IMG/VR virus record: IMGVR_UViG_3300044638_007100
Strand: one strand, 5' to 3'
DNA from: a virus
DNA: 64,000 nucleotides
In this document: positions 29,458 to 48,716 of the stretch, piece after piece
Layout of the letters: each line of letters begins with the position of its first letter
Position numbering within the stretch: position 1 is the stretch's first letter
Position numbers and translations under genes: made by a program
Notes under the pieces: model-generated
Told to the model about the DNA's origin: nothing
The model's database searches: none
The model's input: only the letters and a program-made list of their open reading frames with translations

Positions 29458-29575
29458 CGCCGAAGTCGGGAATTGAACCCGAACTTTTCCCTGACAATGG
29501 AATTTAGAGTAATTGCTGTCCGTATCTAAAACTAGATAACTGCTTTTTAACGTGCTACCGTTACACTACTTCGGC
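29458..29575 (-). ncRNA. tRNA body with a 47-nt CAGCAA insert (29502-29548) in the anticodon stem
   Basis: Acceptor GCCGAAG/CTTCGGC; D arm; T arm TCGGG-TTCAATT-CCCGA; deleting the insert restores TTTCC-ATTGTCA-GGGAA. Confidence 0.75.
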
Positions 29576-29646: not shown

Positions 29647-29759
29647 TGGGGAAGGTAAGATTCGAACTTACGACCAACGGCTCCCAATGCATTTTAATTG
29701 CTGTTAACATCTTAACAAGATGTATTTTTTCGTTGCTCTACCAACTGAGCTACTTCCCC
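29647..29759 (-). ncRNA. tRNA-Pro(UGG)-like body with a 40-nt CAGCAA insert (29691-29730)
   Basis: Acceptor GGGGAAG/CTTCCCC-A; deleting the insert restores ACGGC-ATTGGGA-GCCGT. Confidence 0.8.
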
Positions 29760-34418: not shown

Positions 34419-34489
34419 TCGGGATAGAAGGTACTGCCCCCTCTTCGCTGCGTCCCAAACGCAGAGTTATACTTTTCTACTATATCCCG
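34419..34489 (-). tRNA. tRNA-Pro(UGG), divergent D and T loops
   Basis: CTGCG-TTTGGGA-CGCAG; C1-G72; A73. Confidence 0.75.
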
Positions 34490-35036
34490 TTGTTTTTATG
34501 TAATCCTCAATTAAAGGACTTACCAAGTGTCTATGTCTAGAATGAAACATCCTATGATGATTTGGACATAATGGTATTAGATTTTCTGGATTGTTATTTT
34601 GTTTATTGTAGTCATTATGATGAACTTCAACAATTAAATCAAAACCACAAACACAACACTTTTTTGGATGGTGTGTAAAGCATATTTTGCGATAGTGTGC
34701 ATCGCCATCGAATCCATCCTTATAGTTTGGGTTGTTTTCCCCACTTCTAAAAAAAGTATTAGAGCAAGACCTTGAACAAACCGTTTTTTCGTCTTTACTC
34801 CCTTTTAGAGTTTCAAATAAAGTACTACAAACTGGACATTCTTTTTTAATTAATTCATATTTTCTTGGAGGTTCATATTTTGGAACTTTTATTCCAAATT
34901 GGTTTTGAAGAAATTTAATTTTTCTCCTCCAAGTTCCATTATCACAACCTCCAAGTTTTTTAATAACTTGTCCAGGACCGTTTGATGTTGAACAAGCAAC
35001 TTCAAATTGTTCTTTAGTTATGATTTTGTTTTTCAT
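34467..35036 (-). mobile_element. HNH homing endonuclease-like gene inside the tRNA array
   Basis: CPVC..CSRSC; NPNYKDG; CCVCG..VEVHH.D....NNNPENLIPLCPNHH; own TATAAATA at 35076-35083. Confidence 0.8.
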
Positions 35037-35138
35037 TTTAGTTTCGTAGTATTAGGTTTTGAGATACACCCAAACTATTTATATACGACAATATAAAAGA
35101 TAAACATAAAATTGTCAAGTATGCTTCATAAGAAGCAA

Positions 35139-35986: not shown

Positions 35987-36022
35987 ATTCAGTTTATATT
36001 TAATGACCGAACTGACGGTCGA

Positions 36023-36096
36023 TGGGTCTGGCGGGACTCGAACCCGCAACTTCCAGGTTAAAAGCCCGTTACTGCTACCAGTTGAGTTACAGACCC
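36023..36096 (-). tRNA. tRNA-Lys(UUU)
   Basis: Loop CTTTTAA. Confidence 0.88.
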
Positions 36097-36156
36097 ATAT
36101 AATATAGGATTTCTATTTAATTGTCAAGGTTCTGGTGGTCTCTCAACCACCCTTTT

Positions 36157-36214
36157 AGAATACCACCGAATCAAGTTTGAATCAAGTGGTGTGTGCCAGT
36201 TTCAGAATTGGAAC
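36157..36214 (-). promoter_or_regulatory. Sigma70-type promoter for the tRNA array with upstream imperfect palindrome
   Basis: TTGATT-17-TATTCT preceded by ...AACTGGCAC; downstream AGGGTGGTTGAGAGACCACC nearly identical to 31574-31595. Confidence 0.65.
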
Positions 36215-36315
36215 TTGGCGTTTGGGGTCTCGTTCCCCCACCGATTTACTTAGAATACCACTGCTTCAAACTTTTGGGAAGAAGAGTGGACACTTATGAA
36301 ACTGTCCCAAGCAAC

Positions 36316-36355
36316 AAAAAAGGGGAGGAAACTTTTAGTTTCTCTCCCCTTTTGC
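36316..36355 (-). terminator. Intrinsic terminator (candidate attenuator)
   Basis: AAAAGGGGAG-AGAAAC-TAAAA-GTTTC-CTCCCC-TTTTTT. Confidence 0.8.
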
Positions 36356-36372
36356 TTTATGTTAGAATGACT

Positions 36373-36486
36373 TCATTCTTTCATAATAGCAGAAGGGGAC
36401 TCACACGCAATATGCCCGCATGAATTCCAATCAGACATATTGCTGAGTGGATATGTAAATTGGGGTTTTGCGAACGAACGAGTCAT
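36373..36486 (-). CDS. 37-aa putative leader peptide
   Basis: MTRSFAKPQFTYPLSNMSDWNSCGHIACESPSAIMKE; TATAAATA at 36515-36508 upstream; terminator downstream. Confidence 0.6.
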   Translation of the reverse strand: MTRSFAKPQFTYPLSNMSDWNSCGHIACESPSAIMKE

Positions 36487-36539
36487 TTTTGTTTTACAAG
36501 TATGTTTTATTTATAAGACTTTTTTGGAAAAAAGTCAAG

Positions 36540-36613
36540 CGCCTCAGGTAGGATTCGAACCTACGGCTAACCGCTTAGAAGGCGGATACTCTAGTCCACT
36601 GAGTTACTGAGGC
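36540..36613 (-). tRNA. tRNA-Arg(UCU)
   Basis: Loop CTTCTAA; promoter TTGACA(36716)-17-TATAAT upstream. Confidence 0.92.
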
Positions 36614-36712
36614 ATAAACCTTCCAATATTGGAAGGTATTGGACTTACAATAACGGTGGTTGAATCCCCTCCGCTGCCTATGAGATCATTATAGGGTCTT
36701 TGTGCTCAGGTG

Positions 36713-36907
36713 TCAACCTGCTGCCTTTGCTTCCTTACGTGCTGCCTTCTCTTCAGTGATCTCTCCCCTCCGTGCCTTGACGAGTTTGGCAACTTCCTGA
36801 AGTGCCTTACGAGCACGAGTTCCTGCTGCACTATTGCCAGCAGCAAACTTTTCGTCTTCTACTTTCCATGCTTCAACGGCATTTAAGAGTTCTTGTGATA
36901 CAGACAT
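36713..36907 (-). CDS. Histone H1-like (Hc1-type) basic protein
   Basis: GNSAAGTRARKALQEVAKLVKARR motif. Confidence 0.7.
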   Translation of the reverse strand: MSVSQELLNAVEAWKVEDEKFAAGNSAAGTRARKALQEVAKLVKARRGEITEEKAARKEAKAAG

Positions 36908-36941
36908 GATAATCTCCAAAAAATAAGATATGATTATATAG

Positions 36942-45423: not shown

Positions 45424-47721
45424 TCAGATTTTGCAACTTTCACAATCGTCTTCGCCAGAACTCATAATGTCATCAAGAAGAGATTGAAGTTGTTGTTTTG
45501 GTTCTTCAACTTCATCTGTCTTATTATCATAAGTGTTTTGATAGTATGCTGTTTTATGCCCCAATTTGAAACAAGTAAGCATATCCTGTGCCATTACGCT
45601 AACAGGAACCTCATTGTTCTCATAATTCTCTGGGTTATATGACCAGTTTCCAGAAATCGCCTGATCAAAGAATTTTTGCATAACAGCAACAATATTGATA
45701 TAACCACGATTGCTAGGCATATCCCAAAGAAGCGTATAATTGTTCTTAAGAGTATGATACTGTGGAACAATCTGCTTGAGCGGTCCCTTCTTCGACTTCT
45801 TAACGGACAGATATCCTCTGGGAGGTTCAATTCCGTTTGTTGCATTTGACACAACGGAACTACTCTCCGATGGCATCTGTGCGGACAGTGTTGAGTTCCT
45901 AACTCCATACTGTTTGACCTGTGCTCTAAGACTTTCCCAATCATACTTCAGATTATTTGGAACGATTTCATCAACGTCAGTTTTGTATGTATCAATGGGC
46001 AAAATACCATTACCATACTTGGTGCGATGAGAGTATTCACAGGCACCCTTTTCTTTAGCAAGATTGACAGTTGCCTGAATGAGATAGTATTGGAATGCCT
46101 CAGTCAGATCGTGAACTAATTGCCATGCCCCAGGATCGGCATAATTCTGCCCGTGCTTGGCAAGATAATGTGCCAAACCAATATAACCTACGCCAAGTGA
46201 CCTACGTGCTCTGGTGGCGATTTCTGCTGCTTTGACGGGGTATCTTTGAAAATCAATAAGTTCATCAAGACTCCTAACAGCAAGATCACAAAGAACTTCA
46301 AGATCTTCATTACTTTTAATTTTACCAACATTAATAGCAGAAAGAATACAAAGAGCAATTTCCCCATTTGGATCATCAATATGTTGAATCGGTTTTGTTG
46401 GAAGTGTGATTTCCTGACAAAGATTACTCATCTCAACTTTATCCATAAAGGAAGAGTGAGAGTTGCAGTGGTCAATATTCATAATGTAAATACGACCAGT
46501 TTCGGCACGTTCTTTTAGAAGATCCAGAAATAATTCTTGAGCGCCGATAGTTTTTCTTGGAATAGATCCATCTCGTTCATAACCCACATAAAGGTCGTCA
46601 AATCGATCAGTGCCAAAAGCATCATAAAGACCAGGAACGTCGTGTGGGGAGAAGAGTGTGATTTCTCCGTTTTGAATGAATCGTTCATAGAAAATTTTGC
46701 TGATTTGGATACTGTAGTCTAACTTACGAACACGGTTATCTTCGGTTCCTTTGTTATTTTTTAATACTAGGATGTCTTGGATTTCTTGGTGCCAGATTGG
46801 AAAGTGGACAGTTGCTGATCCACCACGGATGCCGTTTTGAGTGCAAGATCTGACAGTTGCCTGAAACTTTTGGAGGAATGGGATAACACCTGTATGAATA
46901 ACTTCTCCCCCTCTGATTTTACTGTTGATGCCACGGATTCTACCTGCATTGATGCCAATTCCTGCTCTTTGAGCAACATACCTAAAAATTGCAGAATCAC
47001 TAGACTCGATACTAGGCAAGGTGTCATCGACATCAACAAGAACGCAACTTGCATATTGGCGAAGTGGGGTTCTAACACCTGCCATGATTGGTGTGGGAAT
47101 GTTGATTTTATGTTTGGAGATTGCGTCATAATATCTCTTAACGTAATCTAGACGAGTTTCTTTTGGATACTTAGAAAAAATAGTTGCTGAAATCAAAAGG
47201 TACATAAACTGTGGGGTCTCATAAAGAGCACCACTACTCCTATCTTGAACAAGATACTTGTCCACTACTTGTCTAAGTCCTGCATAAGTGAACAAGTAGT
47301 CACGATCATGATCAATAAACGACTCAAGTTTCTCAAATTCTTCATCTGTGTAAAGATCAAGAATTTCTGAATCATAAACTCCGTCATCAACACAATCAAG
47401 AACGTGTTGCTTTACGGTTGGGAATTCATGCATACGTCCAAACAATTGCTTGCGAAGAGCAAACAGAAGAAGACGAGCAGCAACAAATTGATAATTAGGA
47501 TGATCCAGATCAATCAAATCAGAAGCAGAACGAATCAGAATTTCCTGAACCTCTGCTGTAGTAATTCCATCATAAAACTGAATTCCAGATTGCATTTCAA
47601 CTTGAGATGCAGAAACTCCAGCAAGATCCTTACAGGATTCTTCCACCATAACATGAAGTTTATTCAAATCAAGTGGTTCAGTATTTCCATTTCTTTTAGT
47701 GACTTTTGTTCCGTTGCTCAT
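45424..47721 (-). CDS. nrdA: Ribonucleotide reductase class Ia alpha subunit
   Basis: ATP cone; QYASCVL; SNLCQEI; MPSESSS; C-terminal CESC. Confidence 0.97.
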   Translation of the reverse strand: MSNGTKVTKRNGNTEPLDLNKLHVMVEESCKDLAGVSASQVEMQSGIQFYDGITTAEVQEILIRSASDLIDLDHPNYQFVAARLLLFALRKQLFGRMHEFPTVKQHVLDCVDDGVYDSEILDLYTDEEFEKLESFIDHDRDYLFTYAGLRQVVDKYLVQDRSSGALYETPQFMYLLISATIFSKYPKETRLDYVKRYYDAISKHKINIPTPIMAGVRTPLRQYASCVLVDVDDTLPSIESSDSAIFRYVAQRAGIGINAGRIRGINSKIRGGEVIHTGVIPFLQKFQATVRSCTQNGIRGGSATVHFPIWHQEIQDILVLKNNKGTEDNRVRKLDYSIQISKIFYERFIQNGEITLFSPHDVPGLYDAFGTDRFDDLYVGYERDGSIPRKTIGAQELFLDLLKERAETGRIYIMNIDHCNSHSSFMDKVEMSNLCQEITLPTKPIQHIDDPNGEIALCILSAINVGKIKSNEDLEVLCDLAVRSLDELIDFQRYPVKAAEIATRARRSLGVGYIGLAHYLAKHGQNYADPGAWQLVHDLTEAFQYYLIQATVNLAKEKGACEYSHRTKYGNGILPIDTYKTDVDEIVPNNLKYDWESLRAQVKQYGVRNSTLSAQMPSESSSVVSNATNGIEPPRGYLSVKKSKKGPLKQIVPQYHTLKNNYTLLWDMPSNRGYINIVAVMQKFFDQAISGNWSYNPENYENNEVPVSVMAQDMLTCFKLGHKTAYYQNTYDNKTDEVEEPKQQLQSLLDDIMSSGEDDCESCKI

Positions 47722-48716
47722 ATTTTCTTCCAATTGTTAAATTTGATTTTTGCTTCTAAACCTGAATATGTACTTGATTTTAACATATCCATAACGTTAT
47801 GTCCAGCGAGCACCATATCATTAATATCCTTTTGCTCTATGAATAATGGCCAAATAATTACCTTGTCTCCTCTGTTGATGGTTTTTGATATTCGGTTGAC
47901 GATTTCTCGATTACGTGGTTCGTTATCATAAACGTAAATATAATCGCACCAACCAAACGACCTAATATCAATATCGGACCCACACATAGCAATAGAGTTT
48001 TGTATGAACGTAGAGTCGAAAGGTCCTTCAACGATGTAAATGGGTTCCGAAGAATCCACTTGGTTGAGTCCATAAATTTTTGGTGCATCATCAGAAATCA
48101 TTACAGTGATGTATTTATTTGGAGAATAACCAAGTGCTCTTCCCTGAAATCCAATCAACTTAGAGTCAATTCCATATAAAGGTATAATAATGCGACTCTC
48201 ATCTTTATCAGTAGAATCAAATGTCTGTTTTTGAGTATTTGTCCACTCTTTAAATTTGTGAGCAAAGTAAAACTTTTCTGGGTTTATCTTTCTCTTCTCC
48301 AAATACTCTCTGGCAACTGGAATCTCTGATGCCTTTGGTAGATCCAACTTTTTCACGTTTTTGGAATTTTCACGTTTTATGAAAAAGTCTGGTTTCTGAA
48401 AATTGAACTTGGGTTCCTCGACCACAAAGTTCTTACCAGTATGCCCCTCCTTAAACTTCTCCATTGTATATTGCTTATGAAGAGTTGGATCTAGTTCTTT
48501 TAGAAAATTATTGAACGATAAACTAGCACCACAGTTGTGACACTTGAAATTAGTATTGTTCTTTACGGGATATAAGTATCCTCTAGTCTTATTCTTGTTC
48601 TTCTGAGAATCGCCACAAATAGGGCAGCGGAAGTTGTAGAGATCCGCCTTGACCCTTTTGAATTTCTGCAATCTTGAAGAAACTAGTCCGATGTATTTTG
48701 AGTCAATAAAATCCAT
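47718..48716 (-). CDS. gp61: DNA primase (T4 gp61)
   Basis: RCPICGD..CHNC; IVEGPFD; YDNE; KDIND. Confidence 0.95.
   Translation of the reverse strand: MDFIDSKYIGLVSSRLQKFKRVKADLYNFRCPICGDSQKNKNKTRGYLYPVKNNTNFKCHNCGASLSFNNFLKELDPTLHKQYTMEKFKEGHTGKNFVVEEPKFNFQKPDFFIKRENSKNVKKLDLPKASEIPVAREYLEKRKINPEKFYFAHKFKEWTNTQKQTFDSTDKDESRIIIPLYGIDSKLIGFQGRALGYSPNKYITVMISDDAPKIYGLNQVDSSEPIYIVEGPFDSTFIQNSIAMCGSDIDIRSFGWCDYIYVYDNEPRNREIVNRISKTINRGDKVIIWPLFIEQKDINDMVLAGHNVMDMLKSSTYSGLEAKIKFNNWKKI

Follow-up and report, generated by a model that had tools for sequence, protein, structure and literature searches.

A Probable Leader-Peptide Transcription Attenuator at the Head of a Phage tRNA Array

Comparative analysis indicates that a ribosome-mediated (leader-peptide) transcription attenuator probably heads the main tRNA array of a phage that is closest, among named phages, to the cyanomyoviruses S-PM2 and S-SRM01 (Kyanoviridae). 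The window, by which we mean the whole stretch of 64,000 nucleotides analysed from IMG/VR record IMGVR_UViG_3300044638_007100, has a G+C content of 35.6% and contains 26 tRNA genes, all on the minus strand. On that strand a late promoter is followed by a 37-codon ORF, an antiterminator pairing of 10/11 positions, a strong terminator, and then tRNA-Lys and the remainder of the array. The same anatomy is conserved in a family of more than 120 related phage contigs, where the helices covary, the reading frame is maintained and the module stays linked to tRNA arrays. That translation decides termination, and in which direction the switch would respond, we infer by analogy with the textbook trp-type mechanism and from this geometry. 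Discussions of phage tRNA genes usually treat them as a constant addition to the tRNAs of the host.

Layout of the Leader Region

An earlier note on the window, made from its letters alone, had described a late box, a 37-codon ORF, a terminator and the tRNA block, and all four are found at the places and in the order that it gave. The features that frame the switch are as follows.

36716-36688, minus strand: perfect sigma70 consensus promoter, upstream of tRNA-Arg
36613-36539, minus strand: tRNA-Arg(tct), the upstream neighbour, within the upstream context 36539-36716
36508-36515, minus strand: T4-type late promoter box TATAAATA, read from the sequence
36373-36486, minus strand: leader ORF, ATG start, 37 codons plus stop, 19 amino-acid types, no Val
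36099-36310, minus strand: downstream promoter region, apart from the attenuator, with two tandem units, a 20-mer and a sigma70-like promoter
36260-36252 and 36164-36156, minus strand: the two units, each a hairpin plus an extended -10-like TGGTATTCT
36244-36225, minus strand: conserved 20-mer of the downstream region
36127-36099, minus strand: sigma70-like promoter 3' of the terminator, 11/12 matches
36021-36097, minus strand: tRNA-Lys(ttt), first gene of the array, starting at 36097 and followed by 24 further tRNA genes in an array that reaches 29335

All 11 copies of TATAAATA in the window lie on the coding (minus) strand, and NATAAATA has been published as the S-PM2 late promoter (PMC2984593). 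The box in front of the leader occupies the -10 position on the coding strand, which suggests that the leader belongs to a T4-type late transcription unit. This box or a one-base variant occurs in 129 of the 135 listed sites, with the ATG 26-30 nt after it. Because the perfect sigma70 promoter and tRNA-Arg lie upstream of the leader, transcripts from 36716-36688 would also meet the attenuator. On its upstream side this promoter adjoins a gene (36716-36919, minus strand) for a 68-aa protein that matches the histone H1-like Hc1 family (Pfam PF07432, E 1e-12) and whose DNA is 84% identical to the "histone H1" gene of phage S-SRM01.

Sigma70-type promoters had also been anticipated after the terminator, and the 11/12 match at 36127-36099 agrees with this. 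The downstream unit (36157-36310, minus strand) combines a small hairpin or palindrome, an extended -10-like TGGTAT(A/T)(T/C)TA and an invariant 20-mer that is able to form a short hairpin at the transcript start. Two contigs (L013 and L015) have this unit without the leader module, so it is an independent element that lies outside the attenuator. Since these promoters are located directly 3' of the terminator, read-through may supply just a fraction of tRNA transcription.

Several other features of the array are recorded here as observations in their own right. Between tRNA-Asn and tRNA-Phe there is an insertion of about 800 bp (34467-35120, minus strand) with promoter-like sites of its own, a TATAAATA box at 35083-35076 and an ORF for a 189-aa HNH endonuclease (Pfam HNH_2). 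A near-identical contig (L005) has tRNA-Pro(tgg) exactly where the window has this insertion, and Rfam reports a weak tRNA-like remnant at 34419-34489 in the same region; the insertion looks like a homing-endonuclease cassette in place of a tRNA gene. Two further Rfam tRNA matches of 113-118 nt, at 29458-29575 and 29647-29759 (minus strand), are without an ARAGORN call and appear as if they were tRNA genes with insertions of 40-47 nt. ARAGORN also calls a tmRNA-like gene, with the tag ANNIVAFSR..., inside the tRNA arrays of four related phage contigs (L003, L008, L012 and L038) and none in the window.

Mutually Exclusive RNA Structures

Three RNA structures are predicted between the start of the ORF and the downstream promoters.

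36407-36443, minus strand: hairpin P1 inside the ORF, 12 bp (helix 36443-36432/36418-36407), helix 1 of the covariance model
36345-36399, minus strand: antiterminator hairpin with outer, middle, inner and apical helices, from the nascent-RNA MFE (RNAfold)
36316-36352, minus strand: intrinsic terminator with a stem of about 15 bp (36352-36319), one bulged A, a short A-rich loop and T6; -21.4 kcal/mol

If the window RNA is folded without the right arm of the terminator, as a nascent transcript, it forms P1 and one long hairpin of four helices. The outer helix of this hairpin pairs 36399-36393 with 36351-36345 and the middle helix pairs 36391-36388 with 36356-36353. Overall, segment 36399-36389 pairs at 10 of 11 positions with 36355-36345. 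The earlier note had read this complementarity as an antiterminator, a reading borne out by the nascent MFE, by a duplex z-score of -4.2 relative to shuffles and by covariation across the family. The 5' strand of the hairpin is made up of the last eight codons of the ORF, the stop codon falls in its apical part, and its 3' strand overlaps the first 7 nt of the terminator left arm (36351-36345).

The same competition is found throughout the family. The nascent MFE is the antiterminator hairpin in six of eight lineage representatives, and each of the 86 unique arm combinations gives this hairpin when folded alone, at -17 to -35 kcal/mol. All 91 unique variants sequester 7-12 nt of the terminator left arm and enclose the stop codon with at least 19 bp. 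The antiterminator and the terminator, which has a median energy of -19.6 kcal/mol across the same 91 variants, are therefore mutually exclusive. Attenuators usually have an antiterminator that forms first and a terminator that is more stable. The energetics of the window RNA are similar: its antiterminator is available earlier, and the terminated state is the MFE of the full-length RNA at -58.1 kcal/mol vs -50.1 kcal/mol for the antiterminated state.

P1, which lies entirely within the ORF, may act as a pause hairpin. A pairing of the 1:2 (anti-antiterminator) type is significant in lineages D, D2 and B (z-scores of -3.4, -2.6 and -2.0), is marginal in C, and is absent, among the lineages scored, in the window's lineages A and A2. 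Without such a pairing, an untranslated leader in the window's lineage would be expected to read through. A second long-range contact that had been suggested, between ATGACT at the start of the ORF and AGTCAT after its stop, can be drawn in the window, but a base of AGTCAT is changed in its closest relatives (L010, L024 and L042). We rejected this contact; AGTCAT is instead part of the apical hairpin (36379-36374/36369-36364). No Rfam family of any kind matches within 36100-36540 at E values up to 1.

Covariation Across Lineages

The two arms of the antiterminator change together. In every lineage the 5' arm finds its best partner in the 3' arm of the same lineage, and cognate arm pairs average -28.0 kcal/mol vs -19.1 kcal/mol for non-cognate combinations, with z-scores of -3.5 to -8 relative to shuffles. 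The inner helix exists in several compensated haplotypes along with G-U intermediates, and the sequence of the terminator stem also changes in concert between lineages. In S-CREM1 and B3, the terminators are unrelated in sequence and have the same architecture, and the competing ORF segment is altered to match.

To score these changes pair by pair, a covariance model was built on lineage C and 95 hits were aligned to it. This alignment is fitted to the structure and contains four spurious low-scoring rows; in it, 96.7% of cells pair vs 88.1% after shuffling and 42-58% with slid partners, and double changes occur in 29 of 30 pairs (170 double-change cells vs 19.4 +/- 3.8 in shuffles). Compensatory changes are present in 17 of the 18 pairs of the antiterminator hairpin. 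P1 has double changes in 12/12 pairs across the family, with 95.8% of its cells paired. RNAalifold applied to plain MAFFT alignments of all lineages recovered four pairs and was replaced by the covariance-model alignment; it recovered so few because the helices occur in differing registers between lineages.

Distribution and Linkage to tRNA Genes

Two independent anchors were used to collect relatives from IMG/VR: the downstream 20-mer, which yielded 40 loci, and the terminator core, which yielded at least 116. The 135 terminator sites considered here are the matches listed, from viral metagenome contigs. Six of them fall outside the set (two are cut by contig ends, two have no exact box and two are opposite-strand matches). 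Among the remaining 129 listed sites, the next same-strand gene after the terminator is a tRNA gene in 126, at a median distance of 143 nt; it is tRNA-Lys(ttt) in 119 and another tRNA in seven. The upstream neighbour varies among relatives and may be tRNA-Arg, another tRNA or a CDS.

S-PM2 has the matching layout from tRNA-Arg(tct) to tRNA-Lys, with a box, a small ORF, a terminator and the conserved downstream block. It was the only named phage found by blastn with the lineage C and D leaders.

Indirect Evidence for Translation of the Leader ORF

Orthologous ORFs of 31-37 codons are present at 129 of the 135 listed sites and encode 79 unique peptides in at least seven lineages, some of which have leader peptides that can barely be aligned with one another. 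Frame 0 has no stop in the 30 sequences checked (the other frames have 0-6), and every length difference between leader ORFs is a multiple of three. Over the N-terminal third, where the peptide is variable, pN/pS is 0.42-0.55 for lineages C, D and A+A2; within lineages, conservation is good over the C-terminal two thirds. The open frame, the in-frame indels, the fixed distance from promoter to ATG and the pN/pS below 1 together form good, though indirect, evidence that the ORF is translated. Against translation, it has no Shine-Dalgarno sequence, a lack that is usual for cyanophage genes. The ORF is annotated as a hypothetical protein in S-CREM1 (SCREM1_59) and in B3 (b3_0050), and its counterpart in S-PM2 is unannotated.

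Two irregularities in the frame deserve mention. The leader of one contig (L130) carries an early frameshift and nevertheless stays open; its end, a second TAA 7 nt further on, still falls in the apical region of the hairpin. Either an error of sequencing or a variant that is tolerated could account for this. No stop interrupts the +1 frame of the leader in lineage C either.

A rival reading is that this is an ordinary small late gene that encodes a functional 37-aa protein and has its own terminator, with a hairpin that stabilises the 3' end of the mRNA and a position next to tRNA genes that reflects synteny without regulation. The pN/pS values, the conservation of the C-terminal two thirds within lineages and the annotations in S-CREM1 and B3 are what such a gene would give, and the downstream promoters could feed the tRNA genes alone. 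However, a stabilising hairpin has no reason to take up 7-12 nt of the terminator left arm in every variant, and the conserved positions of the peptide coincide with covarying, paired positions of the RNA. The peptides drift between lineages until they can barely be aligned, whereas the way in which the RNA is built and the spot where the stop codon falls stay constant. The peptide also matches no Pfam or PHROG family, and the module remains tied to tRNA arrays while its upstream neighbour changes. We regard the small-gene explanation as unlikely, although it is the strongest of the competitors to an attenuator.

Amino Acid and Codon Content of the Leader

The earlier note had called the ORF a codon sampler because it uses 19 amino acids (all except Val) and 31 distinct codons among 37, and cycles through synonyms of Ser, Pro, Ala, Phe, Cys and Glu. 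A recount gives the same numbers and the same synonym sets. At least 31 distinct codons are found in just 0.07% of the 37-codon windows of the window's long ORFs. GC-ending codons are enriched as had been claimed (GC3 is 0.38 vs 0.22 in the long ORFs), and part of the codon diversity reflects a less biased base composition of the ORF.

A broad amino acid content is a feature of most of the family. Among the 79 unique peptides, 72 have 18-20 amino-acid types in 31-37 residues, and ten have all 20. Random peptides of phage composition have 15.5 +/- 1.4 types, and at least 19 types occur in windows of real proteins with P of about 0.002-0.008. Composition-matched open ORFs, for which mononucleotide shuffles serve as the null, have about 16 types; relative to these, P is 0.0005-0.04 in five of seven lineage representatives and 0.04 for the 19 types of the window's leader. 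Lineages A and D, which are far apart, owe their high diversity to residues that differ both in kind and in position. Diversity is ordinary, at 15-16 types, in the S-PM2 lineage and in one other. Substitutions that compensate for one another to keep diversity high gave no signal in lineage C (column shuffle, P 0.19), which suggests that its diversity resides mostly in conserved, RNA-structured positions.

Synonym cycling, on the other hand, is not a feature of the family. It exceeds the expectation from phage codon usage only in lineages A (P 0.006) and A2 (P 0.002), so we rejected it as a family trait; B, C and D are ordinary, and no lineage exceeds uniform synonym choice. The sampler idea therefore holds for amino-acid types in most lineages and, for synonyms, is confined to the window's own lineage. 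A comparison of orthologous leaders, which the earlier note had recommended, gives a similarly divided answer: antiterminator covariation persists despite drift of the peptide, but diversity of synonymous codons does not extend outside A and A2.

We also considered whether leaders mirror the tRNA genes that follow them. Cases in which an amino acid missing from a leader also has no tRNA gene in the array number 15 vs 12.1 +/- 2.2 in permutations (P 0.14, not significant), and this relation was set aside for the family; L064 and B3 are suggestive individual cases. In B3 (L141, record 45588-47800), the leader is 30 aa long and contains an Asn-Asp-Trp motif three times. The tRNA genes right behind it are Lys, Trp, Asp, Asn (pseudo), Ile, Met, Ala, Glu (pseudo) and Ser, and these amino acids all occur in the leader, where they cover 22 of its 30 residues. 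This suggests that the B3 leader may be matched to its array, a relation that does not reach significance family-wide.

Proposed Mechanism

The comparative data strongly support the structural part of the original reading, in which a putatively translated leader contains an antiterminator that competes with the terminator and would govern read-through into the tRNA genes, with sigma70-type promoters of their own further downstream. Transcripts that carry the 37-codon ORF would arise from the late promoter and, probably, from the early promoter that precedes tRNA-Arg as well. The last eight codons of the ORF would have as pairing partners the spacer and the terminator left arm, of which they take the first 7 nt. 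If this antiterminator forms ahead of the synthesis of the right arm, then polymerase would continue to tRNA-Lys and the rest of the array. On arrival at the stop codon, a ribosome would unwind the 5' strand of the antiterminator and free the left arm, so that the terminator could form and a leader RNA of about 185 nt would be released. Because the stop codon is located in the apical part of the hairpin, a smoothly translating ribosome would have to melt it. A slow ribosome, a ribosome stalled somewhere in about the first 25 codons, or no ribosome at all would leave the antiterminator in place, and tRNA transcription would rise.

The competing structures could also constitute a real switch that is set by something other than the ribosome, such as an RNA-binding protein of phage or host, a tRNA or a small ligand, with the ORF kept for other reasons. 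The structures themselves are well supported, and conservation of P1 and of some loop segments would suit a role as binding sites. Yet the whole 5' strand of the antiterminator lies in a conserved ORF whose stop is always in the apex, which is the geometry to be expected of a ribosome effector, and Rfam gives no match to a T-box or other riboswitch. We consider a different effector improbable, slightly more so than a plain small gene. A stand-alone late noncoding RNA of about 185 nt (a rod-like sRNA) with an incidental ORF is very unlikely: the full-length RNA is stable at -58.1 kcal/mol and terminated attenuator RNAs are reported to be able to act in trans in other bacteria (PMC6614838), but such a role is compatible with an attenuator, no Rfam family matches, and an incidental ORF would not explain a frame 0 that is open in all 30 sequences checked, in-frame indels, a fixed promoter-ATG distance and more synonymous than non-synonymous change per site.

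For the ribosome-mediated attenuator, the least secure step is what the ribosome reports. The wide amino acid content of the leader suggests that it reports decoding speed in general and not the supply of one amino acid. The window's leader has 17 amino-acid types in codons 2-25. A pan-amino-acid sensor of decoding speed, in which a wait for almost any aminoacyl-tRNA would raise phage tRNA transcription, is a tentative proposal that we think has less than an even chance of being correct. If it operates, a stall anywhere in the first two thirds of the ORF would keep the antiterminator in place and increase a near-complete set of phage tRNAs. Hypothetically, the leader might then sense charged tRNA or tRNA cleavage.

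Comparison with Known Attenuators

The combination of a short ORF and an intrinsic terminator resembles the enterobacterial leaders trpL, hisL, leuL, thrL and pheL, and the multivalent leader of ilvGMEDA. As in the trpL class, the predicted antiterminator shares a strand with the terminator, and a ribosome that has come to the end of the ORF would mask it. Both also have a hairpin within the ORF, and a pairing of the 1:2 type occurs in two phage lineages and is absent in the window's lineage. The differences are equally clear. The phage leader controls, if our reading is correct, viral tRNA genes rather than biosynthetic enzymes, and it is placed under a T4-type late promoter. The phage leaders have no run of control codons and instead mostly contain 18-20 amino-acid types in 31-37 codons. 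Their stop codon is inside the antiterminator, not before it.

T-box riboswitches, which control synthetase and amino-acid genes in Firmicutes, are similar in that a terminator/antiterminator switch in the leader reports on tRNA charging. In a T-box leader, uncharged tRNA is bound directly and an ORF is not needed, whereas the phage leader lacks an Rfam T-box match. Its conserved ORF points to the ribosome as the sensor rather than to tRNA binding of the T-box type.

A full-text literature search found no such control described for tRNA genes or in cyanophages, and neither a review of S-PM2 nor the genome paper of S-CREM1 mentions a leader attenuator. To our knowledge, trp-type control logic is known for amino-acid and synthetase genes and not for tRNA genes.

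Implications for Phage tRNA Expression

Part of the phage's tRNA output is probably adjusted to how well ribosomes decode. The family is a large one, with more than 120 contigs, and one of its members, S-PM2, is in culture, so this idea is testable at the bench. If it is true, then a direct readout of translation feeds back on the synthesis of tRNA by the phage. A leader that contains nearly all amino acids would then be a new use of the trp-type switch, as a general gauge of elongation. Such a gauge would provide tRNA on demand, for example when the AT-rich codons of the phage call for more than the host pool can supply, or when tRNAs are depleted or cleaved by a defence of the host.
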